Source of the DNA: Bryobacterales bacterium
GTDB taxonomy: Bacteria; Acidobacteriota; Terriglobia; Bryobacterales; Bryobacteraceae
Direction: 5' to 3'
NCBI GenBank assembly: GCA_030838885.1
Contig: JAUZEU010000476.1
Span: 1 to 28,914 of the forward strand
Length of the DNA stretch: 28,914 nt
Below the pieces are notes generated by a model. It did no database searches. It saw only the letters and a program-made list of their open reading frames with translations, and was not told the origin of the DNA. This document shows positions 1 through 16,631 of the stretch, in pieces. Within the stretch, counting starts at the first letter, position 1, and every line of letters starts with the position of its first letter. The position numbers were made by a program, and so were the translations under genes.

Positions 1-1
1 C

Positions 2-142
2 GACGGCTGGCTCACCATCGAAAGCTTCGGCTTCGCCCTGGGTGATCTCTCCGCTGCCGCTGCCATCTGGCGCGACATCGAAAGCACCCCGGAGTCCATC
101 GCCTTTGAAGGCATCAAATTCCTGAAACAAAACGCCCTGTGA
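2..142 (+). CDS. 3' end of sugar phosphate isomerase/epimerase (TIM barrel, D-psicose/D-tagatose 3-epimerase-like), 5' truncated by window
   Basis: Frame from nt 2 reads DGWLTIESFGFALGDLSAAAAIWRDIESTPESIAFEGIKFLKQNAL* (TGA 140-142), matching the GxLTIEsF...IWR C-terminal pattern of this family; not in the ORF track. Confidence 0.75.
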   Translation, partial: DGWLTIESFGFALGDLSAAAAIWRDIESTPESIAFEGIKFLKQNAL

Positions 143-162
143 CCCCCAGGGCCCGGGACGAG

Positions 163-1164
163 CTACTTCCGGGCCGCTCCGGTGGAATCCCGAACCACAA
201 ACTCGGGATCGAACACGAACTCTTTGCCCAACGCGCCAGCCGAATCCGCATCCCCTTGAGCCAGGCTCGTAAACGACGTATGTCCAATCCTGTCCCGGGG
301 AATATGAACCGTAGTCAACGCCGGATAACAAAACTCCGAAAGTTTGATGTTGTCGAAGCCCGTCACCGAGACATCCTCCGGCACCCGAAGTCCCCGTTCC
401 CGCAATTCCTTCAGAGCACCCACCGCCATCAGATCGTTCACACAGATAATCGCGGTAGGCGCCGGACCACTGGTCAGCAACTCCCGAACTGCTTGCCGGC
501 CGCCTTCCAGACTGTCGCTGTCCGCCGCCACCCGCACACTCGCGTGCGGACACACCAGTTTGACCGTATCGAACAACGCCTGCCGCCGTTCATCGAGCGG
601 AGCCAGCACCGCGTGGTGACCGATAAACGCCAGTTGTTCATGACCCAGGGCCGCCAGATACTCCACAATTCGCTCCACGCCCTTCCGGTAATTCACTCGG
701 ATTTTGGTGATGTTTCCGCCCGCCGTGCCAACGTCGTAAAACACAATCGGGATCCGGCTTTCCGTTAGTTCCTCGACAATGTCGTGTTCCATCTCCGAAA
801 CAATTGCGGCCAGCCCTGCGACACGCCGCCCGATCATCAGACGGATGCTCGCCACCAGTTGCTCGGACTTGTACGCGGTGTTCGCCACCAGAACCTCGTA
901 CCCCTGCGCGTGGCAATCGCTCTCCACGGCGCGGTATACATCGAGAAAAAATGGGTTATCCAGGTTCGAAACAATTACCCCGATAGTCCGGCTGCGCCCC
1001 CCAGCCAGGCTTCTCGCATGAAGGTTCGGGTGATACTTCAGCTCCGTGATCGCCGTCATGACGCGCGACCGCGTGGAGTGCTTCACAACGTCCACGCCAT
1101 TCAGAACGCGCGAAACCGTTGCGGTCGAGACGCCGGATCTCTTCGCTACTTCCTCCAGGCTCAT
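163..1164 (-). CDS. LacI-family transcriptional regulator
   Basis: MSLEEVAKRSGVSTATVSRVLN HTH, YHPNLHARSLAG hinge helix, sugar-binding domain (AIICVNDLMAVG, VSVTGFDNI, LTTVHIP); start placed at ATG 1164 rather than 1239. Confidence 0.95.
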   Translation of the reverse strand: MSLEEVAKRSGVSTATVSRVLNGVDVVKHSTRSRVMTAITELKYHPNLHARSLAGGRSRTIGVIVSNLDNPFFLDVYRAVESDCHAQGYEVLVANTAYKSEQLVASIRLMIGRRVAGLAAIVSEMEHDIVEELTESRIPIVFYDVGTAGGNITKIRVNYRKGVERIVEYLAALGHEQLAFIGHHAVLAPLDERRQALFDTVKLVCPHASVRVAADSDSLEGGRQAVRELLTSGPAPTAIICVNDLMAVGALKELRERGLRVPEDVSVTGFDNIKLSEFCYPALTTVHIPRDRIGHTSFTSLAQGDADSAGALGKEFVFDPEFVVRDSTGAARK

Positions 1165-1254
1165 TACATTTATTCTAACGCGTCCTAAGTTGCTTATTTG
1201 CTGAAGATGCGTTCCCGGCCCGCGAATTCGAAACGTCAAAAAACCATCAATTTC

Positions 1255-1268
1255 TGAAAGCGATTACA
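1255..1268. promoter_or_regulatory. candidate LacI-family operator upstream of lacI
   Basis: TGAAAGCGATTACA, pseudo-palindrome with central CG, matches TGWAANCGNTNWCA; about 90 nt upstream of lacI ATG; 12/14 identical to site at 14387. Confidence 0.6.
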
Positions 1269-1962
1269 ATGCCTGGCTCACCGCAATCGCCTGGTTTTCC
1301 TTCACATCCTTCAGCACCTGAACTTGCCCTCCCGGCCAGCGGATCTCGATCCGGGACGCCGAATCATTTCGACCCAGGCCGAACCGCACCAGCGGCTCAC
1401 TGGACGAAGCGTATCCCACCGCTGTGGTCGCGTGGTTATATTGGACCGCGCCCGTCGGCAGCGTCAGTTTCACGTTCGCTCTGGTCCCCGGCAGACGCAA
1501 CGCCAGCCAGTGCGTTCGCACAGGGCTGGTATTCCGGAAGAACTTGGCCGCACCGTTCACTGCTGTCACCACGACGTCCACCCGCCCGTCACATCGAAAT
1601 CCGCAAACCGCGGCGCCATGGTACAGGGCAGGGGATTGGAAATCCTTCCCGGCGGTCGCTTAAACATACTCAAAGTACCCCCTGCCAACAATTCGCAGCA
1701 CATGGTTTGGCGTCTCCGCCGGAGAGTGTACATAAGGCTCAGATCCCGGAAAGTGGGAGGTGGCGAAGAACAGATCCTTACGACCGTCGTTATCCAGATC
1801 GAACATCTCCGCCCCCGCGGGACGCAAGGACACTTGCGCCTGAGAGAGCGGCCGCCCATCCAAGTCCGTCACTTTGCCGCGCACCAAAGGCCGGCTTGGC
1901 GGCTGATTTTGCGCGCAACAAACCAAACCCAATGCCACAGCCCACCCCAGCCGGCGATTCAC
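1264..1962 (-). pseudogene. degraded chimeric CRTAC1/FG-GAP-ASPIC/UnbV family gene
   Basis: ORFs 1660-1962 and 1264-1581 share a frame and are separated by TAA (1660-1662) in ...GYFEYV*ATAGKDFQ...; FG-GAP motif MFDLDNDGRKDLFF, ASPIC/UnbV tail GYASSSEPLVRFGLG...IEIRWPGG; +1/-1 indels scramble FADFDxDG. Confidence 0.75.
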
Positions 1963-3998
1963 TAATTGGCTCCGATTTGTTGCAGCGCTCGCGCCGCCTG
2001 CTGCGCGACCTGCGGATCCGAACCCCTGGCCGCCTCCCGTAAGTGGAGAATGGCCCCGGTCATATCGCCTCTTCCCGCCAGCGTCGCCCCCAGATCCAGC
2101 TGCGCCCGGCTGAAGTCCGGCTTTAATCTGACGGCCGCCTCAAACTCCGCCAACGCCCCATCCATGTCCTTCTTCCGGGCCAACAGCCCTCCCAGAAGTT
2201 CGTGCGCCTCCGCCAGATTCCCGTCCGCCCGGATCGCCGCCCTCACCTGTTCATCCGACTCCTCAAAGCGGTTCAGCCGAACGAAAGTCAATGCGTATTC
2301 GTAAAGATACGGCGCATAGCCAGGCTGCAGCCGAACGGCTTTTTCGTAGTGAAACAGAGCCTGCGGAAGGTCGCCGGCCTGGGTCAACACCCGCGCGAGG
2401 CCGCTATGAGCGACTGCATAGGAAGGATCGATGGTCAGCGCGGCCCGGAACGCCGCCTCGGCTCCTTTCACGTCACCGGTCTCAAACAGGTTTACGCCCA
2501 GACTGTTCTGCGCGTCCGCCAGATCCGGGTTCAGCGCGATCGCCCGCCGGACACTGGAAATGGCTTCGTTTTTTCGCCCTTCAGCAGATTGCAGCAGCCC
2601 CAGTTCAAACCATCCCTGTGCATCGGTGGGTGCCAACTGCACTGCCCGCCTCAGCGCCTCGCCCGCCCGAACCGGCTGTCCGGCTTCCTTGAGCGCGACG
2701 CCAAGATACCGCAGATTTCGCGCCGCGTCCGGCTTTAACCGGACCGCCTGCTCATAAGCGGCCACCGATTTCGATGCCTGACCCAGCACGATGTAAAACT
2801 CCGGATCGGTCGGTTTCCGCTTCGCCAGTTCGGCGGTTAGCTGAGGAATCCCCGCCGGATTGCTGCCCTGGATCACCTGCGCCACGGCTTTATATAAAGG
2901 ATCGATCGCGGAAGGATAGTAAGGCACCACCTCCCCGCGATACCGCTGATCAATCTCCGGACGGCTCTTGCGCGCCGCCGGACGCCGTGCAATCAAATGG
3001 TCCGTCATCGCGACATGCACCACGTCATCCGTATTGCGCTTCGGCATATGGCAACTCGCGCAATCGTCGCCGGCGGGGTGGCCGGAACTCAGCGACGTGT
3101 GGCACTGCACGCAAGCTCCCAAGGAAACCTTCGCTTCATGGGGGTTGTGGCAGGTGGTGCAAGTCATCTCACCCCTGCTCTTCAGAAAACACTGGGACTG
3201 CCGCAGCCGGTACGCTGACCCCGCAATCTCAAATTTGTCCTCTCGCCCGCTGCCAGGCGCATGGTCGAACGACATGACGAAGTCCCCCAGCGGCTGGTCC
3301 GGAACATAAGAAAACGCTCCCCGATCAAAGCGGCGCAACAAGCCCGGCAACCGCGTGCTGGTGGTTTCGAGGTGGCACTGCATACACGCCTCCAGCTGCC
3401 GATCCTTACTGAGCCTTGCCGGATTGATGATGTTGACCTTCTGTGGCGACTGAATATGCTTCGCGCCCGGCCCATGACAACGCTGGCAGTCAATGCCCTC
3501 CGGAAGGGTGCTCGCGGCAACCGGATAAGCGTTATGACAGAACAGGCACTCATCGGCAATCGGGCGTCGAACCGGCGGATGCGCCACGTCATACCCGGGG
3601 TTCATGTCCCAATACCCGCCCTTCTCCGCATACCACCCCAGTGGCAACTGCGTCAAAGTGCCGCGCTCGGTCCGATGCAAATAGGTACGTGCATGATTAC
3701 CCGACCCCATGACGAAATCCACCGTCATCTCCTCCGCGTTCTCTTCATTGCCCGCATACCCGATCTGCCATCGCCGCTGATAATATCTACCGCCGCGCTC
3801 GAACATTGAATAGTGCGTTTCGGAAGCGGCGTTATAGAAATCCTTCACCGCCGGAAACGCTTGCGGACGAGAGAACGATCTCCCCATGCCGGTCTGCTGG
3901 TACTTCCGATAGATCTCTGCATGGCAGCCGGCGCACTGTGGCTGTGCAAATGCTGCAACCGCCGCGAACCCCAGGACTATCAGACGGCTTAACAGCAA
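1962..3998 (-). CDS. exported multiheme c-type cytochrome (7 CxxCH) fused to C-terminal TPR repeats
   Basis: TTG start 7 nt after GGAGG; signal peptide ending AFA; CAGCH, CLFCH, CQRCH, CMQCH, CTTCH, CVQCH, CASCH; TPR-like repeats (A..LG......G...EA...Y..A..L.P) in the C-terminal half. Confidence 0.9.
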   Translation of the reverse strand: MLLSRLIVLGFAAVAAFAQPQCAGCHAEIYRKYQQTGMGRSFSRPQAFPAVKDFYNAASETHYSMFERGGRYYQRRWQIGYAGNEENAEEMTVDFVMGSGNHARTYLHRTERGTLTQLPLGWYAEKGGYWDMNPGYDVAHPPVRRPIADECLFCHNAYPVAASTLPEGIDCQRCHGPGAKHIQSPQKVNIINPARLSKDRQLEACMQCHLETTSTRLPGLLRRFDRGAFSYVPDQPLGDFVMSFDHAPGSGREDKFEIAGSAYRLRQSQCFLKSRGEMTCTTCHNPHEAKVSLGACVQCHTSLSSGHPAGDDCASCHMPKRNTDDVVHVAMTDHLIARRPAARKSRPEIDQRYRGEVVPYYPSAIDPLYKAVAQVIQGSNPAGIPQLTAELAKRKPTDPEFYIVLGQASKSVAAYEQAVRLKPDAARNLRYLGVALKEAGQPVRAGEALRRAVQLAPTDAQGWFELGLLQSAEGRKNEAISSVRRAIALNPDLADAQNSLGVNLFETGDVKGAEAAFRAALTIDPSYAVAHSGLARVLTQAGDLPQALFHYEKAVRLQPGYAPYLYEYALTFVRLNRFEESDEQVRAAIRADGNLAEAHELLGGLLARKKDMDGALAEFEAAVRLKPDFSRAQLDLGATLAGRGDMTGAILHLREAARGSDPQVAQQAARALQQIGAN

Positions 3999-4013
3999 CG
4001 TAATACCTCCCGG

Positions 4014-4053
4014 AAATTAAAATAGCGCGGCCGCGAAGTATCGCGGCCGCGCT
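4014..4053 (-). terminator. intrinsic terminator-like hairpin after TonB-dependent receptor
   Basis: 13-bp perfect stem AGCGCGGCCGCGA-(4 nt)-TCGCGGCCGCGCT at 4024-4053 followed on the minus strand by ATTTTAATTT. Confidence 0.7.
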
Positions 4054-4078
4054 GCTCAAGCCAACAATCCGGATCAGA

Positions 4079-7000
4079 TCAGAATCTGATCTTCAACCCG
4101 AATCGCAGGTACCGTTCGTCGATCAACCGGCTCGCCGTCGTCGTGCTGGTGATCTGCGCGTAAGCAGGGTTGGTGGTATTTCCCTGCGGGTTGCTGAAGT
4201 GCGGAGTGTTACTGAGATTGAACGATTCCGCCCGGAACTGAATGGTGAACCGTTCCGTTGCCTTGAAGTCCCGGAAGACGCTCATGTCCAAATTGGTGAC
4301 ACCGGGCCCGCGGAGCGTGTTGAACCCCGCATTTCCGATCACACCCGGAGCCGTCAGCGCCACAAAGGCTGTCGGATCGAAATAAGATTGTCCTGGGCCG
4401 ATATTGCCGAGGATCTGCACATCCTGTTTGACCTGCTGGGCCCGCTGTGTGAAGCCGGGGGTGTTCAGGGCGCCGCCGCCTGATACCGAGAACGGCGAAC
4501 CCGAATACTTACTGAAGATCGACTGTATATGCCATCCGCCAACAACTGCATCGGCGAAGCGGTTACTGTTCAGGAAGTGCTTCCCTTTGCCGAACGGCAG
4601 ATCATAAACCGCGCTCACCCGAAGGTTGTTCGGACGATCGGAGCCCATCAGGGCCTTGTTCAGGTACGTGTACTGGGGCAGAGCGACAGCAGGGCCGCCA
4701 TCGCCGGAATCGTCGCAGCAGGTACCGATCGCCTTTGATCTTGTGTACGCAAGACCGAAGAGAAGTCCCGATGCATCGAAGCGATGATTCAGTTGCGCCT
4801 GCAGCGAATTGTAGTGCTGGCTCTCGTACGGCAGAATCACTGTGATGCCTCCGGTGATTCCCTGCGGAGCGAACACCTGGCTCGCGCTGCCTCCATTCAG
4901 GCTGGTAGCGTAGTTGACGTTGTAGCGCGTGTGCTGATGGATGGTGAGCGTGCCCACGTAACCCGCCTGCGCGACCCAACCATGACCGAAGTCTTTCTGA
5001 ATGGTGAAGTTCATCGATTCGGTATAGCCGCGAATGAACTTCTGGTTCGGCAGAATGATAGCTCCCAGGACAAGCCCTTTCGGCGGGGTGATGATCCCGC
5101 TGCTGATATCGACCGGCGCCTGTACCGGAATACCGTCGCTGAGCGACGCGACCGGGCTATACGGCGAAGCACCGCTCTGGTCGTAATCCACGCGGACAGG
5201 GTAGTTGTAAATGCCGTCGCGGAACATGTTGATCTGCTCGGGCGATAGTGAATACCCCGCGCGGATCACCATGCTGTCGGTTGGGCGGTAAGCGATACCG
5301 ATGCGGGGCGCGAACAGGAGCTTCTGCACGGTGATGCCGCAGTTGGACGGGTTGGGGCCAATGCCGCAAAGCGTGATCTGGTTCTTCGCGAAGTCGTAGG
5401 TTTCGATCTGGCGATTGCCACGCGTCGGAACCGGATAGTATTCCCATGCCGTGCCCACGGCGACAGTGAGCTTCCGGTGCGCTTGCCAGGTGTCCTGAAC
5501 GTAGATACTGTGCTGCCAGGTCCGAAGTGTGATCGGTGTGCTGGGAGCGGGGCTGTTCACATAGCGCTGCGGAAGGCCAAGCAGGAAGTCCGCATAGGTG
5601 TTGAATGCATTTGCGTTCGCTCCACCCGGCCCGGACTGAGTGGCGCCACCGTTGAAGCTGAACTGGGTGGGTGTGGTTTCGAAGTGGTTCATGTGCTGCT
5701 GGCTCATGTTCAGGCCGAAACGAACGTTGTGGCTGCCCTTGATCCAGGTAGCATTCGCGGCATACTGGAATACCGGATCGTCATACTGCAGCGGGGAATA
5801 GGAGTAGCCGTAACCCGAATAGTTCGTGATGTTGAACTGCGGCATACCACCGGCCTGCGGCAACTGACCGAGGTTGGTGCCGGGGATGCCGAGGAAATCA
5901 GCGCCCAGTTTCTTGTCGACTGAAGGCGGGTTCAGTACCTGATGAGCATAGGTGCGTCCCCAGTTACCGTCAAGGATGAACGTGGGGCTGAAAACATAGG
6001 TGGCGGTCGCGGCGTAAGCAGTCGCATAGCCCGTTTGAAGGCTGTTCGGACTTCCGCCCAGGATCGGTCCAAAGATTGTCGGTTGGGTAATGTTATACGG
6101 CTGATAGCCATAGCGGCCCGCAATTTTCAGTTTCTGGCTTGCCACCCAGTCGACCTTCGTATCGTAGTGTTTCAAGTCGTTTGAGATCGGGGTATTGACA
6201 TAGTAGTTGTTGGCCGGAAGAATCTGCCCCAGGTTTTGATTCGGGTTTGGCAACAACGCCGTGAGCTTCGAGGAAATCGCGCTGATTCGGTTTGCCGGAA
6301 TGATGTTACCCGGGAACGGAGTTCGGCCCGTCGGGATGCCCTTGGAATCGTAGGTGCCCGTGGCGGGATCGTAGATTGTCGTGGGGCTCGCCGAAAGGTT
6401 CCCCTGCCGGATCGCAACCGTGGGAATGGTGACGGTCGGGTTGGCGCTTCCCTGCCGGATGTAGTCGCCTTCGAAGCTGCCAAAGTAGAACAGCTTGTTC
6501 TTGATGATCCTGCCGCCTGCAGTAACGCCCAGATCGTTCTCGATGAGCTTCGGAATACCTTGATTCGCGGGCAGGAAGTACGGCCGCGCTTTCAGCGCGC
6601 TGGTGATGTTGTATTCGTACAGGGAGCCGTGGAAGCTGTTGGTGCCGCTTTTGGTCTGCACGTTAATCGAGGCTCCGTTGGTCATGCCCTGATCCGCGCC
6701 CGAACTTCCGGTCACGACGTTCACGGTCTCGATCGCTTCGATGGAGGGCGCATAGGTGGCAAAGAACTGCACCCATGGATTCGTTGCGCTCACCCCATCG
6801 ATCAGAACGTTGGTTCCGCTGCGGCTCGTGCCATCCGCGGAAATCTGAAAGGACTTGCTGGGGTTATTTGTTCCGCCACTGCTTGCGGCAGGCGGTGCGA
6901 TACCCGGCATGAGGGCGACGATTCCTTCGAACTGCCGGGTAGGTTGCGGAAGATCGATCAGTTGTTTGCTGCTGAATTCGGCGTGTACATCCGCTCGGTC

Positions 7001-7447
7001 GGTTTGAAGCGCGGCAGACTCTGCTGTAACTTCAACCGTCTGCGATTGCGCGCCAACCTGCAGGGCGGTATCGACGCGAACTACCGTATTCAGGCTGACC
7101 TGAACATTGTCGGTTGTGGAACCCTTGAAACCCTCTTTTAAAACGGCAACTTTGTAGGTTCCGGCGTGAACCGTCGACAGTGTAAAACCGCCGGACTCGT
7201 TCGTTTTGGTTTCGCGCGTCTCATTCGTTTCAGCCTGCGTCACCGTTACGGTCGCGCCCGAAACTGCGCCGCCGGAAGCGTCTGTCACGCTGCCTACGAT
7301 GGAGCCAAAGAGCACCTGAGCGCTGGCGGGCTGCAGCGTTGCAAGCAGCCACAGCGCGAAGCAAACTACTGTGAAGATGATGTATAACCGATTGCGCGAA
7401 ACGTGGCCGGGACCCGCGCGACGTTTCAGGCAGTGGGACTCTAACAT
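4079..7447 (-). CDS. TonB-dependent receptor with N-terminal carboxypeptidase-regulatory-like domain (Oar-like type)
   Basis: Signal peptide ...ASAQ, GSIVGSVTDASGGAVSGATVTV domain, plug segment EAIETVNVVTG...G, barrel ending RYLRFGLKIRF with terminal Phe; AAGGGG upstream of ATG. Confidence 0.95.
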   Translation of the reverse strand: MLESHCLKRRAGPGHVSRNRLYIIFTVVCFALWLLATLQPASAQVLFGSIVGSVTDASGGAVSGATVTVTQAETNETRETKTNESGGFTLSTVHAGTYKVAVLKEGFKGSTTDNVQVSLNTVVRVDTALQVGAQSQTVEVTAESAALQTDRADVHAEFSSKQLIDLPQPTRQFEGIVALMPGIAPPAASSGGTNNPSKSFQISADGTSRSGTNVLIDGVSATNPWVQFFATYAPSIEAIETVNVVTGSSGADQGMTNGASINVQTKSGTNSFHGSLYEYNITSALKARPYFLPANQGIPKLIENDLGVTAGGRIIKNKLFYFGSFEGDYIRQGSANPTVTIPTVAIRQGNLSASPTTIYDPATGTYDSKGIPTGRTPFPGNIIPANRISAISSKLTALLPNPNQNLGQILPANNYYVNTPISNDLKHYDTKVDWVASQKLKIAGRYGYQPYNITQPTIFGPILGGSPNSLQTGYATAYAATATYVFSPTFILDGNWGRTYAHQVLNPPSVDKKLGADFLGIPGTNLGQLPQAGGMPQFNITNYSGYGYSYSPLQYDDPVFQYAANATWIKGSHNVRFGLNMSQQHMNHFETTPTQFSFNGGATQSGPGGANANAFNTYADFLLGLPQRYVNSPAPSTPITLRTWQHSIYVQDTWQAHRKLTVAVGTAWEYYPVPTRGNRQIETYDFAKNQITLCGIGPNPSNCGITVQKLLFAPRIGIAYRPTDSMVIRAGYSLSPEQINMFRDGIYNYPVRVDYDQSGASPYSPVASLSDGIPVQAPVDISSGIITPPKGLVLGAIILPNQKFIRGYTESMNFTIQKDFGHGWVAQAGYVGTLTIHQHTRYNVNYATSLNGGSASQVFAPQGITGGITVILPYESQHYNSLQAQLNHRFDASGLLFGLAYTRSKAIGTCCDDSGDGGPAVALPQYTYLNKALMGSDRPNNLRVSAVYDLPFGKGKHFLNSNRFADAVVGGWHIQSIFSKYSGSPFSVSGGGALNTPGFTQRAQQVKQDVQILGNIGPGQSYFDPTAFVALTAPGVIGNAGFNTLRGPGVTNLDMSVFRDFKATERFTIQFRAESFNLSNTPHFSNPQGNTTNPAYAQITSTTTASRLIDERYLRFGLKIRF

Positions 7448-7525
7448 GGAAAAACCCCTTTCGTGTGCCGATTAGTAACGAATTTGAACTGGCTAATTGA
7501 CGAACGCCCATTGCGAGCGTAATCG

Positions 7526-7554
7526 CTGACTCACCCCGTTTCCGTTGGTATAAC
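7526..7554 (+). promoter_or_regulatory. candidate sigma70 promoter for PSCyt-DUF1501 operon
   Basis: CTGACT-N17-TATAAC with extended -10 TG at 7546-7547. Confidence 0.55.
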
Positions 7555-7570
7555 ATGAGTGCTGAATTGA

Positions 7571-7584
7571 TGCAAGCGCTTTCG
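7571..7584. promoter_or_regulatory. candidate LacI-family operator in TBDR/PSCyt divergent region
   Basis: TGCAAGCGCTTTCG (reverse complement CGAAAGCGCTTGCA), just downstream of the predicted start site; aligns with sites at 1255 and 14387. Confidence 0.6.
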
Positions 7585-7606
7585 GGCGTACCGCCGCGAA
7601 TCTCCT

Positions 7607-10425
7607 ATGAATCTTACCGCTCACGCTGTTCCGTTGATGCTGTTGGCCCTTCCGGCGGCTGCACAGGATCCCTCTGCTTTCTTTGAAAAGCAGATCCGGC
7701 CCGTGTTCGCCGCCAAATGCGCGCAGTGCCACAACAGCACTCTGAAGACGGCGGGCCTCGATCTCACCACGTCCGGCGGCATCGTGGCGGCAGCTTCCGG
7801 CAACCGTCTGGTCAAGGCGATCGGGTACGAAGATAAGACGAAGATGCCGCCATCCGGCAAGCTTCCGGACGTTGCGATTCAGGACATCACGACTTGGGTG
7901 AATTCCGGGGCGATAGTGCCGGACTACAAGCCGCTGGCGACTCCAACCGCCGGCGTTTTCAGCGAAGCGCGTCGCAGCCACTGGTCTTATCAGCCTGTTC
8001 GGAACGTAGCGCTGCCTGCTGTCAAACAGGTTGCCTGGGCGCAATCGCCTATAGATCGGTTTATCCTGGCGAAGCTGGAAGAGAAAGGTCTCACCCCTCC
8101 AAAGCCCGCAGACAAGGGGACGCTGATTCGGCGCGCCAAGTACGATCTTCTGGGGCTGCCACCCACGGAAGACGAGATCCGCGAATTTACCTCAGACAAC
8201 TCGCCAGATGCTTTCGCGAAGGTTGTAGATAAGTTCCTGGCGTCGCCTCACTACGGTGAGAAGTGGGGAAGGCACTGGCTGGATGTTGCGCGGTATGCCG
8301 AATCTTGTGGAGTGGATGAAAACGACGCTTACACCGAAGCCTGGCGCTATCGCGAGTACGTCATCGATGCATTCAACCGTGACGTTCCTTTCAATACTTT
8401 CATTCGCGAACAGGTGGCTGGTGATCTTCTTCCATCCGGCGATGGATCGCCGGTAAATGTGCGCGGCAGGGTGGCCACCGGGTTTCTCGCTCTTGGCCCA
8501 AGGCCACGGTTGAGATGGACAAACTGAAGACTGCATCGGATGTGATCGATGAGCAGATCGACACGACGTCGAAGGCCTTTTTGGGCCTGACCGTTGCGTG
8601 CGCGCGTTGCCACGATCATAAATTCGATCCGATCGCGACCAAAGATTACTACTCGATGGCCGCGATTTTCGCGAATACGAAGAGCTTTGACAATGCGAAG
8701 GGCGACTTCTTTACGGAGCGGAAATCGCGCCTTTATATGGCGCCTCTTGCGGACCAGGCGGTCTACGAGACTTACCGATTGCACCAGCAGAAGATCGCTG
8801 CGAGGACGATGCAGGCGACAGCATTGCTCGATAACGAGACCTGGAAATATGCATCGGCGAATCTCTTCCCGCGGATGGCCGATTACATGGCGGCAGCATG
8901 GAAAGCTCAGCATGGCACGAACGCCGATGAAATCGCCGCCATTGAGAAGCTTGACGCCTGCATCCTGAAGGAGTGGATAAAGTATCTCGATCCGAAAGGC
9001 GGGTTTCTTCCGCACCTGCAGCGCTGGCGTCAGGCGGATAAAGCGAATGTCGCTTCCGTGGCCCGAGAGTACGCCGGGCTTTTCCAGAAGACTGCTAATA
9101 GCTGGGGCGTCCAACTGGCGGAATGGAAGGTGGCCGTCGATGACGCTGTAGCTGGTAAGAGGGAATTGCCCAAGGCTCCCAATATCGAGTACAACAGCAC
9201 GACGGCATTCACAGATCCTTCAGAACGCCTGTTCGCCGACATCGTGATTCCTGCGCGCACGTTGAACGATAGGACCGCTAAAGACGGTCCGTTTGTTCTT
9301 CCGGCCAAAGAACAGGAGGATCATCTGTCGGCCGACATGAAAGTGCGTCTTGCGGAGCTTCGGAAGGAAGCAGACACCCTTAAGGAAAGCTCTCCGCCCA
9401 AGCCGCCGATGGCGAATGCCGTGGCGGAAGGCCCGAAGGTGGAACAGCATGTGTTTATTCGGGGCAACTACTCAAATCCCGGGGATCTGGTCGAGCCAGC
9501 CATGCCGACCATCCTTCGTGCCGCCGCGACTAAGCCCGTGGCGCAGGGAAGCGGCCGGCTGGAACTGGCGGATTTTCTCGCGAGCTCCGCCAACCCGCTG
9601 ACCGCCCGCGTGATCGTAAATCGGATGTGGTCCTGGCACTTCGGGGAAGGTCTGGTCCGCACGCCCAATAACTTCGGAATCATGGGTGAAGCGCCGACGC
9701 ATCCGGAGTTGCTCGACAATCTGGCGAAGCAGTTCATAGCCGGAGGGTGGTCCATGAAAGCCATGCACTGGACGATGATGCTCACCAGTCTGTATCAGAG
9801 CGCCAGTGAGACCTCTCCGGATGCTGCTCGTATGGACCCCGCGAACCGCCTTTGGTCCCGCTTTCAACGCCGCCGAATGACTGTGGAAGAGGTGCGCGAT
9901 ACCTGGCTGCAACTGGCCAACTCGCTCGATCTCAGGATGGGCGGCATCTTCGATCAGGTGGACGCGGAAGCCGGTGGCCGGGGTGGTCCGGATCGCGGAA
10001 TGCGCGGCGCTTCGCCAAGAAACTTTGACGTCAGCAAGCGGCGCACAGTCTACGTTGCGATTAACCGGAATGCGGTGGCTACTCCGATGGTTCTGTATGA
10101 CTTTGTCGACTCCACTACGAGTGCGGGTGACCGGCCGGAAACTATCATTGCCCCGCAGGCACTTTACCTGATCAATAACCCGTTTGTGGCGAACAATGCA
10201 AAGGCCTTTGCTGAGCGCCTTCTCTCGGACAAGACCCTTTCCGATGAGCAACGCATCGCGAAGGCTTACCAGATGGCATGGCAGCGCGAGGCAACCACGG
10301 CCGAGATGGGCAGCGCGTTGAATTACATCCGGCAATATCCGGCGGCTGCTAAGGCGGACTTCACTGGCTGGCAAAGTTTCTGCCGCATTCTGATGTCGGC
10401 AAACCAATTTCATTTCATTGATTAA
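7607..10425 (+). CDS. PSCyt1/DUF1549/DUF1553 (PSD1 and planctomycete cytochrome c) protein, interrupted by a 1-nt frameshift near 8500
   Basis: Signal peptide, CAQCH, DUF1549 motifs (HWSYQP, PIDRFI, LIRR..YDLLGLPP, GEKWGRHWLDVARYAES, ACARCHDHKFDPI), DUF1553 motifs (NPLTARVIVNRMW, PTHPELLD, QALYLINN); ORFs 7607-8527 and 8515-10425 join inside DUF1549. Confidence 0.88.
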
Positions 10426-10438
10426 CGAGGCACGCACG

Positions 10439-11824
10439 ATGATGAACCCGAGTCATTTTTCACGACGAGCGATGCTCCGTAAGAGCGCCTGCGGTTTCGG
10501 CATGATCGGCCTCAGCAGCCTGCTGGCGGCGGAAACCAATCCACTGGCGCCCAAGGCACCGCACTTCGCGCCCACTGCGAAGCGGGTCATCATGCTTTTC
10601 ATGGATGGTGGTCCTTCCCATGTGGATTCCTTCGACCAGAAGCCCCTGCTCGACCGCGATCATTTGAAGCCACCGCCGTTCAAGCTGGGGACTACTTTCA
10701 ATCCGGTTGGCGCGCTCATGAAGTCGCCGTGGGCGTTCAACCGCTATGGGCAAATGGGAATGCCGGTTAGCGATCTGTTTCCCAACGTGGCACAGCATGT
10801 GGACAAGATCACCTTCATGCATTCGATGGTTGCAGATGGCCTGGACCATGGCGGCGCACTGCTCCAGATGCACACAGGGACTCTGACGCTAACCCGTCCG
10901 TCTATGGGTTCATGGATACTCTACGGACTCGGTACTGAGAATCAGAACCTGCCGGGCTTTCTGACTATTCGCCCGCACACGGGCCACAGCGGGGTGCGTA
11001 ACTGGAGCACGGCTTTTCTGCCCGGCGCTTACCAGGGCACTCCTGTTGGGGTGTCGCGCCCCAGGCTGGAAGACGTCCAGAAAGAGCCTATTGAGAATCT
11101 GTTGCCGCAGGGCCTCAGCCCTGAACAACAGCGATATGAACTCGACATGCTGCGCAACGTCAACCTGAAACAGGCAGAGCTGAACAAGTATGACGAGCGA
11201 TTGGAATCTCGCATCCAGTCGTTTGAACTTGCTTTCCGGATGCAGGCTGAAGCTCCCGATGCGTTCGATACTTCAAAGGAATCGGAGGCCACTAAGAAAC
11301 TCTATGGGGTAGACGATCCGGCAACGGCTGACTATGGCTGGCAGTGCCTGTTGGCGCGGCGGCTGGTGGAGCGTGGCGTTCGCATCGTGCAGTGTAATTC
11401 AGAGGGTTGGGACCAGCACACGGAACTGGCTCGACGCCATGCGGAACAGGCACGGATGGTGGATAGGCCAATCGCGGGGCTGCTGGCAGATCTGGAATCG
11501 AGGGACATGCTGAAGGACACGCTCGTCATCTGGGGCGGGGAATTCGGCCGTACACCGGTTATGGAGAAAGATGGCCGGGATCACAACCCGTATGGCTTTA
11601 CGTTCTGGATGGCCGGCGGTGGCGTGAAGCGCGGCTTCCGCTATGGCGCGACTGACGATTACGGCTATAACGCGGTTGAGGACCGAATGCATGTGCATGA
11701 TTTCCATGCGACGGTGCTGCATCTGCTTGGCCTGGACCACAAACGCCTCACCTATCGATATAGCGGCAGGGACTTCCGGCTGACGGATGTTTATGGTGAT
11801 GTCGCGAAGAAGATCCTGGCGTGA
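10439..11824 (+). CDS. DUF1501 domain protein (alkaline phosphatase/sulfatase-like fold), twin-arginine signal
   Basis: SRRAMLR...GFG signal; AKRVIMLFMDGGPSHVDSFD, RPSMGSW..YGLG, WDQH, WGGEFGRTP, GRDHNP, HDFHAT.LHLLG.D, RDFRLTDV; GAGG 8 nt before ATG 10439. Confidence 0.93.
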   Translation: MMNPSHFSRRAMLRKSACGFGMIGLSSLLAAETNPLAPKAPHFAPTAKRVIMLFMDGGPSHVDSFDQKPLLDRDHLKPPPFKLGTTFNPVGALMKSPWAFNRYGQMGMPVSDLFPNVAQHVDKITFMHSMVADGLDHGGALLQMHTGTLTLTRPSMGSWILYGLGTENQNLPGFLTIRPHTGHSGVRNWSTAFLPGAYQGTPVGVSRPRLEDVQKEPIENLLPQGLSPEQQRYELDMLRNVNLKQAELNKYDERLESRIQSFELAFRMQAEAPDAFDTSKESEATKKLYGVDDPATADYGWQCLLARRLVERGVRIVQCNSEGWDQHTELARRHAEQARMVDRPIAGLLADLESRDMLKDTLVIWGGEFGRTPVMEKDGRDHNPYGFTFWMAGGGVKRGFRYGATDDYGYNAVEDRMHVHDFHATVLHLLGLDHKRLTYRYSGRDFRLTDVYGDVAKKILA

Positions 11825-11867
11825 GAACCGTTTAGCTCGCGGCGCTGTCAAGTATCCTATGGATTGT

Positions 11868-13946
11868 TTAGGGCAGAGCTAACGCGACTAACTCTGCCGG
11901 GAAACCCGCCGCGCCAACTGCTACAACGATGAACTGCCGCCCGTCCGCCATATAAGTCATCGGGACGCCCGTGGTCATGGCAGGCAGAGTCATCTCGTGA
12001 ATGACTTTGCCGGTCTTCTTATCTATGGCGCGGAACGTGTTACCCCCAGCCCCCGCCGGGCTGGCCCAGAGGTTATTCCCGTCCGATCCGAACAACAACG
12101 ACTTCGTCACCATCAGCAACGACCGCGACGGCTTGCCCGTATTACTCAGGTCAATCCCTTTCAGTGCGGGATGATTTTTGATGTAATCCGGCGCATCGCC
12201 GTTGGCGATGGTCCACATGTGGTCGCCAGAGTTCAGGTCGATTGCCGTGATTCTTCCCCATGGTGGTTTGACAAGAGGCAGGCCCTGAGGGCCGACATTG
12301 GTACGTGCTGCAGGCCGCATGGCGAAACTTTCGCTGTCGTCCGTGTTGCCGGAGAAGGTGGGGGGAGCGATTCGGGCCGGGCCGCCATTCGCGTTGCCTG
12401 TTGTGCCGGCGGGCGCTCCGCCACGTGCGGGGCCGCCGCGACCGCCGCCGACGTAACCCATGTCCGACCTCTTCGGGTCAGCCTTTGTGACGGAGAGAAA
12501 CTCACTCTGGGTGACCGATGCCACGTAAAGCACACCGGTTTCCGCATCCACTGCGCCGCCTGGCCAGTTCACGCCGCCCACATGCGCGGGAAGCAGAAAC
12601 AGAGCGGATTTTCCATCTGTATCCGGCACGATCGGGGGTGAATAGAGCGGGCCCATTTTGTATTGGGAGGCGATCTTCAGCGCTTCCTGTCTCAACGCCG
12701 GTGTGAAGTCAATCAGAACGTCAGGGCTGGAACCCTGGCGGTCAAACGCAGCGGGCTTGGTGGGGAACGGCTGCGTGGGTGAAGTCCTCTCGCCAGGCAC
12801 ATCGGACTGCGGCACCGGGCGCTCCTCGATCGGCCACACCGGCTGCCCCGTAACCCGGTCGAATACAAAGGCGAAAGCCTGCTTTGTAACCTGCGCTACA
12901 GCCTTAATCTTCTTGCCATCTTTGTTGATGTCCACGAGGATAGGGGGCGCGGCGATATCCCAATCCCAGACGTCGTGGTGAACCAGTTGGTAGTGCCAGA
13001 CGCGTTTGCCGGTGCGTGCATCCAGACACACCAGGCTGTCGGAGAACAGATTGGCGCCCGGGCGGTTCCCGCCATAGAAGTCTCCGGTCGGCATCTCGAC
13101 CGGGATGTAGACGTAGCCAAGTTCTTCATCCGCGCTCAGCGGCGCCCAGGCGCCCGTGTTGCCGGAGTACTTCCAGGAATCGTTCTCCCATGTTTCATTG
13201 CCAAACTCGCCAGGCCGGGGAATCGTTTTGAAGGTCCAGATCTTCTTCCCCGTGCGCACGTCGAAGCCGCGGATGTAACCGGGCACGTTCTCTTTGGTCG
13301 TCGGAGCCGTACCCGCCAGCAATGCCGCGCCCACCACAACCGTATCCTTTACGATAATCGCCGGGGAACTTGCGCCGATTTGTCCCGGTTTCACCGCCGG
13401 GCGATCCAGGCCCTCGGTCAGTTCAACCTTGCCACTTGTGCCGAAGGTGGTGATTGGCAGACCGGTCTTTGCGTTGAGCTCTATAAGTTGGTAGCCGGGA
13501 GAAATCACCAGAATTCTCTCGTCGCCCTTACCGTCGGTCCAGTATGCGAGCCCGCGATTCACCACTCGGGCAACTACGGTTCCGCGAGGGCCTTCATCCA
13601 GCCGGTAGATCCAAAGCGTTTCGCCCGTCACCGCATCTACTGCAACCGCGTCACGCCGGGTACCTGCGGTGAAGTACAGCACCCCGCCGGCCATGAGCGG
13701 CGTGACTTCCCAATTGAAATCCGGGCGCTTGCCGAAATTCTGCGCCTTCCATTCCCAAACGATTTTTAGGTCCTTCACGTTCGAGGCATTGATCTGGTCG
13801 AGCGCCGAGTATTTGGTAGACCCGGCATCGCCGCCGTAAAAGTGCCATTCGCCGTTCTGCGCGCCACGCTGTGCACACACCGGCAGCGTTCCGACTGCCT
13901 GCAGCACTGTCAGAGGCACAATCCACCGCAACCCGTTTATTGCCAT
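11868..13946 (-). CDS. PQQ-dependent dehydrogenase (quinoprotein glucose/quinate/shikimate dehydrogenase-like beta-propeller), soluble and exported
   Basis: W..YGGD..STKYS.LDQIN..NV..L, Trp-docking repeats, QLVHHDVWDWD, PTQPFP, PPWG.ITAIDL, PMTY..DGRQF; signal peptide instead of N-terminal TM helices; GAGG RBS. Confidence 0.92.
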   Translation of the reverse strand: MAINGLRWIVPLTVLQAVGTLPVCAQRGAQNGEWHFYGGDAGSTKYSALDQINASNVKDLKIVWEWKAQNFGKRPDFNWEVTPLMAGGVLYFTAGTRRDAVAVDAVTGETLWIYRLDEGPRGTVVARVVNRGLAYWTDGKGDERILVISPGYQLIELNAKTGLPITTFGTSGKVELTEGLDRPAVKPGQIGASSPAIIVKDTVVVGAALLAGTAPTTKENVPGYIRGFDVRTGKKIWTFKTIPRPGEFGNETWENDSWKYSGNTGAWAPLSADEELGYVYIPVEMPTGDFYGGNRPGANLFSDSLVCLDARTGKRVWHYQLVHHDVWDWDIAAPPILVDINKDGKKIKAVAQVTKQAFAFVFDRVTGQPVWPIEERPVPQSDVPGERTSPTQPFPTKPAAFDRQGSSPDVLIDFTPALRQEALKIASQYKMGPLYSPPIVPDTDGKSALFLLPAHVGGVNWPGGAVDAETGVLYVASVTQSEFLSVTKADPKRSDMGYVGGGRGGPARGGAPAGTTGNANGGPARIAPPTFSGNTDDSESFAMRPAARTNVGPQGLPLVKPPWGRITAIDLNSGDHMWTIANGDAPDYIKNHPALKGIDLSNTGKPSRSLLMVTKSLLFGSDGNNLWASPAGAGGNTFRAIDKKTGKVIHEMTLPAMTTGVPMTYMADGRQFIVVAVGAAGFPAELVALALP

Positions 13947-13966
13947 TTAGCTTTCCTCGCGCCACG

Positions 13967-14374
13967 CTACTTTTTTGCTTCGATCCGGATCTCATTCATG
14001 GCGGCCAGTTCCCGATCCAGTTCTTTCTCCCCGGCGGGAAAGTCGTTCGCTTTGAGAATGAACGCGGCGAGATCGGAGTACTGGCGCATGCTCAGATGCC
14101 CCGGATCGTCCGTAGGCATGGTCTTGCGCATGAATTCGAAAAGCGCCCCCACCGTCTTTCCGTTCCAGCGGCTCAGGAATTCCGGCCCGGTGAGTTCAGG
14201 AGAGCCATCCCCGCCGGTCAGATTTTCGGAGTGGCATTTGGCGCACTCTTCGCGGTAGACAGTCTGTCCACGTATGGCCTGGTCTTTTGTGTAAACGCCG
14301 TCCTGGGCCGAACGTGCTGCGGCAAGAATGGGAATGATGGCGGACAGAAAGATCGCAACGCGGGCTCGGCGCAT
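13967..14374 (-). CDS. monoheme c-type cytochrome, likely partner of the PQQ enzyme
   Basis: Signal peptide, VYTKDQAIRGQTVY..ECAKCH, Met ligand candidate in KTMP; 20 nt upstream of the PQQ gene. Confidence 0.9.
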   Translation of the reverse strand: MRRARVAIFLSAIIPILAAARSAQDGVYTKDQAIRGQTVYREECAKCHSENLTGGDGSPELTGPEFLSRWNGKTVGALFEFMRKTMPTDDPGHLSMRQYSDLAAFILKANDFPAGEKELDRELAAMNEIRIEAKK

Positions 14375-14386
14375 AAGAGGTCTTGG

Positions 14387-14400
14387 TGAAAACGATTGCA
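14387..14400. promoter_or_regulatory. candidate LacI-family operator upstream of cytochrome c-PQQ operon
   Basis: TGAAAACGATTGCA, 12 nt from the cytochrome c ATG, at about +1 to +14 of the predicted minus-strand promoter. Confidence 0.65.
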
Positions 14401-14407
14401 GCTATGG

Positions 14408-14436
14408 AACTTATAACAGTGGGGGTTCTCTGTCAA
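14408..14436 (-). promoter_or_regulatory. candidate sigma70 promoter for cytochrome c-PQQ operon
   Basis: Minus strand TTGACA (14436-14431)-N17-TAAGTT (14413-14408). Confidence 0.6.
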
Positions 14437-14472
14437 GGGGACGGAACCCCCCTATGGATAGGGCGATTCAAG

Positions 14473-14500
14473 TTGACCTGAAGCCGTCATTTCATATAAG
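14473..14500 (+). promoter_or_regulatory. candidate sigma70 promoter for alpha-hydroxy-acid oxidase pair
   Basis: TTGACC-N16-TATAAG, 22 nt upstream of the TTG start at 14523. Confidence 0.55.
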
Positions 14501-14522
14501 CTCGGCGCACAGTGGTGAAGTC

Positions 14523-15680
14523 TTGAATCGCAGGGAATCTCTTCGTGCTTTGGGGGCGTTTTTGGCAGGCTCGCCGCTGCTTGCGCAGCAGGATCCCCTG
14601 CGTGATCACACGCGGGTTCCGGGGCTGAACGAACTGTTAACGGCTTTCGATTTCGAGGCAGTGGCGTATACGAAGCAGCCGCGCGCGGTTTACGATTACC
14701 GGGCGTATGGTTCGGACAGCGAGTTTACGCTGCGCCGCAACCGTGAGGCGTTCGAATGGGTGGAGTTGATTCCGAAGCGCGTGGTGGCGGGTCCGGTGTC
14801 CACCGCATGCGAAGTGTTCGGGACGAAGATGGCGTTCCCTCTGATTGTGTCTCCGACGGCAGCCCATGGTGAACTTCATCCGGAGGGCGAACTCGCCACT
14901 CATAAGGGCGCGCTGGCGGCGGCGAGCACGCCGATGATTCTGAGCAACAATACCAGTTTCCCGTTCGACAAAGTGGTGGCGGCAGCGGGGAGCCCTATGT
15001 GGGTGCAGCTGTACCCGAAACAGCAGCTTGAGGCCAACCGGTCGTATCTGGAAAGCGCACAGGCGGCCGGGGCGAAGGCAGTGGTGGTTACTATCGACCA
15101 GCAGGTCTCGTACTACGAGCGCTCGCTGCATGACCGGAATCTGAACAGCAGTACGCGGGGTAGTGCGCGTGGTCCGGGAATGCGCCCGACGATGGGGAAT
15201 CCGTACCGCGTGGCCGATAACCGCCTGTGGTACGAGTGGAAGTTTTTCGATGAGATTCGCCCTTTTGTGAAGGTGCCAATGATTGCCAAAGGCGTGGTAA
15301 CGCCGGAGGATGCGAAGCTCTGTCTGGAGCACGGGGTGGATGGTGTTTATGTTTCCAACCATGGTGGGCGCTCGCTGGACTACGGCCCTTCGACTCTGGA
15401 AGTGCTGCCCGAGATTGTGGATGCGGTGCATGGACGCGTGCCGGTGCTGTTCGACAGCGGGATTCGCCGGGGTTCAGATATTTTGAAAGCCCTGGCTCTG
15501 GGCGCGAGCGCGGTGTGTATCGGGCGCGTGCCGTTGTGGGGGCTTGGATCGTTTGGTGCAGCCGGCGTGCAGCGTGTGCTGGAGATTTTGCAGGCCGAAC
15601 TGGTGCAGGCAATGCAATATACCGGGTGCACTACGTTGGCGTCCGTAGATCGTAAGATGTTGCTGACGAATTTCCCGTAG
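14523..15680 (+). CDS. FMN-dependent alpha-hydroxy-acid oxidase/dehydrogenase with twin-arginine-like signal peptide
   Basis: TTG start gives MNRRESLRALGAFLAGSPLLAQQ; VYDY, WVQLY, VTID, KGV, VSNHGGRSLD, DSGIRRGSD..KALALGA, GR; upstream in-frame starts lie 5' of the promoter. Confidence 0.9.
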   Translation: MNRRESLRALGAFLAGSPLLAQQDPLRDHTRVPGLNELLTAFDFEAVAYTKQPRAVYDYRAYGSDSEFTLRRNREAFEWVELIPKRVVAGPVSTACEVFGTKMAFPLIVSPTAAHGELHPEGELATHKGALAAASTPMILSNNTSFPFDKVVAAAGSPMWVQLYPKQQLEANRSYLESAQAAGAKAVVVTIDQQVSYYERSLHDRNLNSSTRGSARGPGMRPTMGNPYRVADNRLWYEWKFFDEIRPFVKVPMIAKGVVTPEDAKLCLEHGVDGVYVSNHGGRSLDYGPSTLEVLPEIVDAVHGRVPVLFDSGIRRGSDILKALALGASAVCIGRVPLWGLGSFGAAGVQRVLEILQAELVQAMQYTGCTTLASVDRKMLLTNFP

Positions 15681-15683
15681 AAC

Positions 15684-16631
15684 ATGCCACAGATAAAAGG
15701 AGAACCGGCCGGACGTATTGCGCCTTTTGAGGAACTGGTGAATGCGCTGGAGTTCGAGGCAATGGCGCAGCGGAAGCTGGATAGCCTCACGTATGCGCTG
15801 GTGGCGACTGGCGGCCGGAAGGCCCTGGACCGTATTACGCTGCGTCCGCGCGTGATGGTGAATACGACAAAGCTCGATCTGACGCTGGACCTGTTCGGGC
15901 TTCAGATGTTTGCGCCGATTTTGATTGGGCCTGTGGCGCAGCAGAAGCGTTTTCATCCCGAAGGCGAACTCGCAATGGCGAAGGGCGCTGCGGCGGCCAA
16001 AGCGGTCGTGGTGATTTCGGATCGTTCGAGCCAGCCGCTCGATCAGGTAACCCCGTTGTGTACGGCTGGGTTCTGGTATCAGATCTATGCCGAGGCGGAT
16101 ATGACTGCGGCGGCGGGTCGCGCGAAGGCGGCGGTGGCGGCGGGCGCCAGGGCGGTGTGTCTGACGCTGAGTAGTTCCGGGCTGGACTGGAGCGGTGTCG
16201 AACGCGTGCGGCAGTCGTTGAAAGCGCCATTTGTGCTGAAAGGCGTGATGAGTGCGGAAGAGGCGCAGGCATGCGTGCAGAAGGGCGTGCAGGGGATTGT
16301 GGTTTCGAACTATGTCGACGGACCTTCCGCGGGTCTGGCTTCGCCGATTGAAGTTCTGCCGGGAATCGCGGACGCGGTGGGGGGGAAGATACCGGTCCTG
16401 ATGGATGGCGGGCTGGTGCGTGGCGCCGATATGTTGAAGGCGCTGGCCTTGGGCGCGCGTGGGGTTTTGATTTCCCGGCCGGCAGTTTGGGGATTGGCTG
16501 GCTACGGAGCGGATGGAGTGCAGCGGGTTACGGAGTTGCTGCAGACCGAGCTTGCGCGGGATATGGCCATGACGGGGAAGCCGGGTTTGAAGATGATTGA
16601 CCGAAGCACTGTGAAGGTGCATCGCTGGTAA
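15684..16631 (+). CDS. alpha-hydroxy-acid oxidase-like protein lacking catalytic residues
   Basis: Family motifs APILIGP, HPEGELA, YQIY, LKGV, DGGLVRGAD.LKALALGA, SRP retained, but SNHGGR is SNYVDG and TxD is TLS; starts 3 nt after the previous stop. Confidence 0.88.
   Translation: MPQIKGEPAGRIAPFEELVNALEFEAMAQRKLDSLTYALVATGGRKALDRITLRPRVMVNTTKLDLTLDLFGLQMFAPILIGPVAQQKRFHPEGELAMAKGAAAAKAVVVISDRSSQPLDQVTPLCTAGFWYQIYAEADMTAAAGRAKAAVAAGARAVCLTLSSSGLDWSGVERVRQSLKAPFVLKGVMSAEEAQACVQKGVQGIVVSNYVDGPSAGLASPIEVLPGIADAVGGKIPVLMDGGLVRGADMLKALALGARGVLISRPAVWGLAGYGADGVQRVTELLQTELARDMAMTGKPGLKMIDRSTVKVHRW

Follow-up and report, generated by a model that had tools for sequence, protein, structure and literature searches.

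A LacI-Family Repressor and Its Predicted Operators Outline a Candidate Local Regulon of Receptor, Cytochrome and PSCyt/DUF1501 Genes in Bryobacteraceae

Introduction

When the gene of a sugar-type repressor lies among operons for an outer membrane receptor, cytochromes and proteins of the DUF families, which of them does the repressor control? The question is raised by contig JAUZEU010000476.1 of the Bryobacterales bacterium assembly GCA_030838885.1 (Acidobacteriota; Bryobacteraceae), of which positions 1 to 28,914 of the forward strand are hereafter called the window. A sequence-only reading of this DNA had noted three matching 14-mers, and proposed that the LacI-family protein encoded beside them controls its own gene (lacI), a TonB-dependent receptor (TBDR) operon, a PSCyt/DUF1501 operon and a cytochrome c/pyrroloquinoline quinone (PQQ) operon. 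The follow-up described here supports the core of this proposal: the three sites are predicted to be operators of the adjacent LacI that join the flanking operons into a local regulon, a reading to which we give a probability of roughly 0.78. It holds because the sites stand out in a genome-wide ranking, because the motif recurs beside LacI orthologs and because the recognition helix of the repressor is invariant. As to the extent of the regulon, comparative evidence backs the operators, lacI, the receptor operon and, in one subclade, the cytochrome c/PQQ operon, while the PSCyt/DUF1501 operon is attached by the second operator and an analogous site at one other locus (L218).

The source assembly (G000; the window is its contig C699) comprises 6.59 Mb in 839 contigs, is 84% complete and has 58.5% G+C. 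Comparison loci were the surroundings of LacI orthologs (54-82% identity) from the same genus, for which 48 genomes and a metagenome scan were available. Sequence variants came from a comparison with four soil metagenomes, and the figures given below are from the 40 best-supported of 494 differences.

The Three Predicted Operators

Operator O1 (TGAAAGCGATTACA) occupies 1255-1268 on the plus strand, at -91 to -104 from the lacI ATG, where it overlaps the stop codon of a CRTAC1-like gene remnant. O2, which reads CGAAAGCGCTTGCA on the minus strand and is also given as TGCAAGCGCTTTCG, lies at 7571-7584 between the divergent receptor and PSCyt genes, at -23 to -36 from the PSCyt ATG and -124 to -137 from that of the receptor. 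O3 (TGAAAACGATTGCA) is found at 14387-14400 on the plus strand, at -13 to -26 from the cytochrome c ATG and -123 to -136 from the TTG with which a flavin mononucleotide (FMN)-dependent dehydrogenase gene starts. All three 14-mers are present exactly where, and on the strands on which, the sequence-only reading had placed them. They share the 14-bp central-CG palindrome TGmAAGCGCTTkCA, and all are non-coding and promoter-proximal, the position typical of LacI-family operators.

Dinucleotide shuffles of the window gave 0.01 expected matches against the three observed. The degenerate consensus matched nowhere else in the 6.59-Mb assembly, a circular test since the consensus was derived from the same sites. 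An independent matrix was trained on 14 sites beside LacI orthologs in seven other genomes, with the window sites excluded, and used to rank 13.2 million positions of the source genome. With this matrix O1 scored 20.2 bits, O2 19.9 and O3 16.7, which places them 3rd, 4th and 18th; together they are the top three non-coding matches, and every other match of at least 16.7 bits lies deep within a long open reading frame (ORF). About 15 background matches at this threshold in 6.59 Mb correspond to a Poisson expectation of ~0.001 for the non-coding DNA, ~550 bp in all, that surrounds these operons. A matrix scan of the genome and an inspection of orthologous loci had both been proposed as checks on the sites; the first returned them as the best three non-coding matches, and the second found the motif kept beside LacI orthologs. 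A high frequency of matches in coding sequence, equal to that in promoters, had been named as a ground for abandoning the prediction; the local non-coding DNA holds three matches against the ~0.001 expected.

The LacI Repressor and Its Orthologs

The repressor gene lies on the minus strand at 166-1164 (stop codon 163-165) and encodes 333 residues opening with MSLEEV. This start is fixed by alignment, with 12 orthologs all opening MSLE or MTLE. A helix-turn-helix (HTH) domain (PF00356, 62 bits) is followed by a type I periplasmic-binding fold (Peripla_BP_1/3/4), the architecture of the LacI/GalR family, and the best matches among solved structures are PurR, RbsR and CcpA (residues 3-302). Neither the recognition helix VS(T/P)ATVSRV nor the hinge varies across 13 orthologs with 54-92% identity, and the hinge sequence YHPNLHARSLAGG is conserved among them. 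When near-perfect palindromes with a central CG were listed blind around the orthologs, this motif was the one type that recurred in non-coding DNA.

At least 9 orthologous loci have an operator some 90-190 nt before lacI, among them P0002, P0003, P0013, P0020, P0033, G047 and G019, as does the window, and the metagenome contigs that carry one encode LacI proteins 89%, 88%, 85%, 84% and 81% identical to that of the window. O1 itself forms a conserved block in the aligned lacI upstream regions (alignment A2). Autoregulation of lacI is thus supported, because the upstream operator is kept in orthologous loci. LacI-family genes number only 4-5 in this genome, and the motif is missing upstream of all but this one. 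The order CRTAC1 3' end, operator, lacI is also seen in L218, a metagenome contig whose LacI is 85% identical to that of the window.

Elsewhere the lacI gene and its upstream operator stand in very different neighborhoods, even where the orthologs are 84-93% identical (loci L114-L120 and L212-L219), with neighbors that include OmpA, glycosyltransferase, AP_endonuc_2, melibiase and radical-SAM clusters. The operator-lacI unit looks as if it relocates as a cassette.

The Receptor Operon

The operon upstream of lacI is transcribed from the minus strand and begins with the TBDR gene (4079-7447; 1122 aa; CarboxypepD_reg, Plug and OMP_b-brl_4 domains), followed by a multiheme cytochrome-TPR fusion of 678 aa (1962-3998; Cytochrom_c3_2/paired CXXCH motifs and many TPR families) and by a CRTAC1/ASPIC-UnbV-like remnant (1264-1962), which translation shows as a single frame of 232 codons interrupted by a TAG at 1660-1662. 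The same order is preserved in metagenome contig L214, whose LacI is 84% identical to that of the window: a receptor 67% identical, a heme-TPR protein 54% identical, an intact CRTAC1 of 631 aa with CarboxypepD_reg, FG-GAP and UnbV_ASPIC domains, and lacI. Three operators (21.2, 19.5 and 19.9 bits) precede the L214 receptor gene, and membership of the TBDR/heme-TPR/CRTAC1 operon in the regulon is supported on that account. Genome G024 has a receptor ortholog of 79% identity lacking an operator, and no LacI was found in that genome. The CRTAC1 remnant of the window is a genuine pseudogene in decay, because in addition to the in-frame stop codon there are, in other soil assemblies, single-nucleotide deletions at 1462 and 1608 as well.

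Some minor observations concern related receptor genes. In G024 (contig C349, locus L110) the sequence CTAAATCGTTTACT at ~3490-3505, ~70 nt upstream of the receptor ortholog, retains a single intact half-site and may be a decayed operator. In the source genome two more TBDR genes are preceded, at a distance of 128-138 nt, by weaker copies of the motif at C623:11670 (15.9 bits) and C694:1076 (15.4 bits), which makes them possible additional members of the regulon; on C694 the site is turned toward a frameshifted DUF1552 gene as well. The other candidates of 15-17 bits in this genome, near integrase, SDR/ClpP, M2 peptidase, polyketide synthase, PQQ propeller and M14 peptidase genes, were judged to be chance matches.

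The Cytochrome c/PQQ Operon

O3 precedes a minus-strand operon that starts with a class I cytochrome c of 135 aa (13967-14374; Cytochrome_CBB3/Cytochrom_C) and continues with a soluble PQQ dehydrogenase of the glucose/quinate/shikimate (mGDH-like) type (11868-13946), which PF01011 matches over its full length. TIGR03074 matches at positions 151-767 of 783, corresponding to the catalytic part without the membrane anchor, with the cytochrome c as a separate partner. The family would fit periplasmic oxidation of aldoses. Contig C509 carries both pqqC and pqqE, which means that the cofactor can be synthesized, and the idea that the receptor imports PQQ was set aside on the same grounds.

About 20 orthologous cytochrome c/PQQ operons (67-83% identity) were found, 8 from LacI-positive genomes and 13 from LacI-less ones. 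Only three genomes have an operator at this operon, the source genome itself, G043 and G060, all with close LacI orthologs (77-81%) and all with the layout -35/-10, operator, start codon; it is missing from all 13 genomes in which there is no LacI ortholog. Regulon membership of the operon is supported for this one subclade. On the other side of the O3 intergenic region two FMN-dependent alpha-hydroxy-acid dehydrogenase/oxidase genes (14523-16631, plus strand, PF01070 in both) are possible regulon members.

The PSCyt/DUF1501 Operon

Divergent from the receptor gene, a PSCyt1-DUF1549-DUF1553 gene (7607-10425, plus strand) is split by a 1-nt frameshift near 8497, and Pfam places PSCyt2 across the two ORFs. 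It is followed by, and overlaps at its end with, a gene for a DUF1501 protein of 468 aa (10418-11824, plus strand; PF07394, E = 8e-144). A homolog aligns over both PSCyt frames, which join at 8500-8503, and an additional T after 8496, seen in three independent soil assemblies, restores a PSCyt ORF of 939 aa. The frameshift (window 8490-8505) is best read as either an assembly error or a strain-specific lesion, and the regulon of the population probably includes an intact PSCyt gene.

Related modules are found beside the same regulator elsewhere. In L218 an operator of 19.9 bits lies 9 nt before the ATG of a PSCyt3/PSD-DUF1552 operon, convergent to and beside the CRTAC1-operator-lacI arrangement. 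A DUF1552 neighbor like that of L218 also occurs in L214 and L117, and a further PSCyt/DUF1501 pair lies divergent to lacI in G043. PSCyt-type modules therefore appear to recur under this regulator. A 19-bit match near a PSCyt paralog (L085) was rejected, as it falls inside coding sequence. True control of the PSCyt/DUF1501 operon by LacI is a somewhat better than even bet on these data.

An Arabinose-Related Effector?

If LacI governs these operons, to which sugar does it respond? The window protein is 55-75% identical to LacI proteins encoded within GH51-araB-araD loci (G018, G012, G044) and 65-70% identical to those of GH10/GH43/GH51/esterase loci (G002, G019, G052), and the HTH is identical between the window LacI and these arabinose- and xylan-locus orthologs. 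Sites precede genes for a GH51 arabinofuranosidase, araB, araD, an aldose epimerase, a sodium/solute symporter and TBDRs in G018, G012, G044 and G021; in G019, G002 and G052 they precede genes for GH10, GH43, GH51, esterases, a major facilitator superfamily transporter and a lactonase, and also those for enolase-superfamily dehydratases and a cytochrome c-PQQ propeller. A promoter-proximal motif at arabinose/xylan genes and TBDRs is seen in G015, G019, G002, G018, G012, G052 and G021. By its gene neighborhoods the orthogroup is taken to be an arabinose/arabinoxylan-type local regulator in Bryobacteraceae. The sugar-type effector proposed earlier agrees with this, and can be narrowed by orthology to an arabinose- or arabinoxylan-related compound; for the window LacI itself, orthology and the neighborhoods of its orthologs put an arabinose-related effector at about even odds. 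The regulon of the source genome looks rewired relative to its sisters.

Genome G021 has six perfect sites and a full arabinose locus (GH51, araB, araD, epimerase and symporter) in which each promoter has an operator. The site cluster (loci L201-L205) stops ~700 nt from a contig end. Across the genus the strict pattern TGMAAKCGMTTKCA occurs 0.94 times per LacI-positive genome and 0.66 times per LacI-negative one; this co-occurrence test was discarded as non-discriminating, since AT-centered variants are common in coding sequence and the six sites of G021 are counted for a genome with no detected LacI.

Promoter Candidates

Two of the operators had been described as lying just downstream of good sigma70 promoters. 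One candidate, CTGACT-N17-(TGg)TATAAC at 7526-7554 (plus strand), would put O2 at about +10 to +23; another, TTGACA-N17-TAAGTT at 14408-14436 (minus strand), would put O3 at about +1 to +14, as would an alternative reading of the same segment with TGtTATAAG and a 15-nt spacer. The third pair quoted, TTGCAT-N17-TATACC, likewise occurs in the window. The hexamers and spacings are therefore there, but the description as good promoters did not survive a strict consensus scan, which the candidate at 7526-7554 fails by a C at position 6 of its -10 hexamer. They are nonetheless plausible, TGgTATAAC being an extended -10 and TTGACA a perfect -35. A 10/14 copy of the operator at 7518-7531, proposed as an auxiliary site, exists as described; with 68 matches of this quality in the window, and a score of only 3.9 bits, it was dismissed as chance. 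A terminator scan of the three intergenic regions found none, and an Rfam scan of window 1-16700 returned no RNA family.

At lacI a different arrangement is suggested. A -10-like hexamer, TAGAAT (1172-1177, minus strand), lies 7 nt before the ATG in a conserved block of alignment A2, and TA[GC]AAT at 7-9 nt before the ATG is near-invariant in the alignment of 10 regions upstream of lacI. The lacI mRNA may accordingly be leaderless, starting from a putative promoter at TA[GC]AAT next to the ATG. Since O1 lies well upstream of that element, its main effect may be on transcription that reads through from the receptor operon, or it may act by looping.

Counterevidence and Alternative Explanations

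Several observations weigh against a regulon of this composition. The window PSCyt gene has no ortholog above 57% identity in the 48 genus genomes and the metagenome scan, which leaves no ortholog by which to footprint the action of O2 in that direction, and a LacI neighbor occurs at only 1 of 80 metagenomic PSCyt loci, which means that PSCyt/DUF1501 modules are generally not LacI-linked. The cytochrome c/PQQ operator is absent in four more distant LacI-positive genomes (G019, G015, G012 and G052), and the close ortholog loci P0012, P0019, P0026 and P0006 have no site. A strict sigma-70 scan of the three intergenic regions passed none of the quoted promoters, and O1, ~85-100 nt upstream of the conserved TAGAAT, is in a non-classical position for occlusion. 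As for the effector, no match to araB, araD, GH10 or GH43 was found in the 84%-complete source assembly, and the GH51, MR_MLE, lactonase and epimerase homologs that this genome does have carry no site, which makes the arabinose assignment one of orthology only. Finally, no ortholog of the window LacI was detected in G021 (a 95%-complete assembly), for all its sites; either the gene fell into an assembly gap or a different regulator operates there.

The alternative that survives best concerns O2, which could serve the receptor operon only, with the PSCyt-DUF1553/DUF1501 operon merely sharing the intergenic region. L214, the sole orthologous test of O2, speaks for it, in that operators precede the TBDR gene and the divergent partner is an esterase rather than a PSCyt gene, and so does the general lack of motif or LacI association among the PSCyt paralogs of the genus and the 80 metagenome loci. 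The position of O2 points the other way, 23-36 nt before the PSCyt ATG and past the best -10-like element of that strand, against 124-137 nt from the TBDR ATG; the strong L218 operator, 9 nt ahead of a different PSCyt-type operon that adjoins lacI, and the G043 lacI divergent from another PSCyt/DUF1501 pair, also argue against a receptor-only role, and it is considered rather unlikely.

Considerably less probable still is that another LacI-family regulator binds the sites, wholly or in addition, through cross-talk or as a global regulator. A paralog on contig C678 has the same recognition helix VSTATVSR, the motif resembles the generic LacI-family/cre consensus, and G021 combines six perfect sites and an arabinose regulon with no detected ortholog. 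Yet the motif tracks the orthogroup over more than 13 loci, including the site upstream of the gene itself; the C678 protein is without the conserved hinge and its gene without an upstream site; and the G021 cluster ends so near its contig end (~700 nt) that lacI may be unassembled. Nor are non-coding sites spread genome-wide as a global regulator of the CcpA/FruR kind would need: just three non-coding matches reach 16.7 bits, all of them in the window, and there are few weaker candidates (15-16.5 bits), most of them unrelated. That the three matches are a chance low-complexity palindrome is effectively refuted by the scores from the independent matrix and by the recurrence of the motif at orthologous loci, together with ~0.001 sites expected locally against three observed, even though the first consensus was derived from the sites themselves and 14-mers of similar score arise by chance in coding regions.

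Proposed Mechanism

In the local regulon favored here, a LacI dimer would bind the 14-bp central-CG palindrome at O1, O2 and O3. At O1 it would exert autoregulation or block read-through from the receptor operon; at O2 it would sit between the operon of receptor, multiheme-TPR protein, CRTAC1 remnant and lacI and the divergent PSCyt-DUF1549-DUF1553/DUF1501 operon; and at O3 it would lie just downstream of the cytochrome c/PQQ -10 element. When inducer is missing, repressor on or just past the transcription starts would block RNA polymerase. An inducer, most likely L-arabinose, an arabino-oligosaccharide or an arabinoxylan product, would release it. What is inferred here is that LacI binds, that it represses and does not activate, where the promoters lie and what the effector is.

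Relation to Known Systems

A survey of 1,303 LacI-family regulons found even palindromes with a central CG, autoregulation in 72%, local regulation in ~90% and sites mostly 30-140 nt before start codons, and included zero Acidobacteria (Ravcheev et al., 2014, PMC4052901). The window system resembles these local regulons in its repressor of HTH and periplasmic-binding fold, its even central-CG palindrome, its site positions (-13 to -137 from start codons), its predicted autoregulation, and its few operons adjoining the regulator gene, with a content that is flexible between relatives. It differs from them in its cargo, which consists not of hydrolases, kinases or ABC transporters but of a TBDR, a multiheme-TPR protein, PSCyt/DUF1553-DUF1501 and a PQQ dehydrogenase with cytochrome c. 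The mechanism would thus be a textbook one (LacI repressor, palindromic operator, autoregulation), and the cargo unusual and, as far as the comparisons reach, partly conserved.

AraR of Corynebacterium glutamicum is a LacI-type arabinose repressor. B. subtilis AraR is a GntR/LacI chimera (PMC1950556), and AraR of Bacteroides belongs to the NrtR family (PMC4666351). Orthologs of the window LacI in GH51-araB-araD-epimerase-symporter loci, with an operator per promoter, would fill the same physiological role; unlike these, the source genome has no araB or araD that could be found, and the predicted targets are redox and uptake proteins.

The 14-bp cre consensus recognized by CcpA is TGWAANCGNTNNCA. 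CcpA/cre of the Firmicutes is similar to the window system in this consensus and in the recognition helix VSxATVSRV, and CcpA is among the closest solved structures. CcpA is, however, a global regulator with many sites that needs HPr-Ser-P, whereas the window has three strong non-coding sites beside the regulator gene.

In Planctomycetes and Verrucomicrobia two-gene modules of PSCyt/PSD with DUF1501 or DUF1552 have been described, for which the function was stated to be unknown and roles in electron transfer and carbohydrate use were speculated, with no regulator given (Kamneva et al., 2012, PMC3542564; He et al., 2017, PMC5615132). Genomes of Acidobacteria, Planctomycetes and Verrucomicrobia contain PSCyt/DUF1553-DUF1501, PSCyt3/PSD-DUF1552 and TBDR/multiheme-TPR/CRTAC1 cassettes by the tens, again with neither function nor regulator given (PMC3542564, PMC5615132). 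The domain architecture and gene pairing of these modules are those of the window; what sets the window and L218 apart is that two kinds of module have a predicted operator of a sugar-type repressor. Predicted operators of one such repressor precede PSCyt-DUF1501, PSCyt3-DUF1552 and TBDR/heme-TPR/CRTAC1 cassettes across at least three organisms. The regulon would thereby supply the speculation on carbohydrate use and electron transfer with a regulator and a candidate inducer, and the search for an activity of these uncharacterized proteins with a candidate inducing condition.

A broader generalization is tentative and at present rather doubtful, namely that an arabinose/arabinoxylan-type LacI controls a conserved envelope redox set in uncultured Bryobacteraceae, made up of TBDR, multiheme-TPR, CRTAC1/ASPIC, PSCyt modules with DUF1501 or DUF1552, and a soluble mGDH-like PQQ dehydrogenase with cytochrome c. 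Were it true, these families would act in the periplasmic oxidative processing of plant-cell-wall pentoses or oligomers, and the regulon would be a first regulatory handle on the PSCyt/DUF1501/DUF1552 and heme-TPR/CRTAC1 cassettes.

Away from the three operators, the window holds one weaker copy of the motif, TGTAAGCAATTTCA at 28110-28123 (14.6 bits), which is inside the ORF at 26779-28275 (minus strand), 158 nt from the start of the longest ORF, and is probably a chance match.

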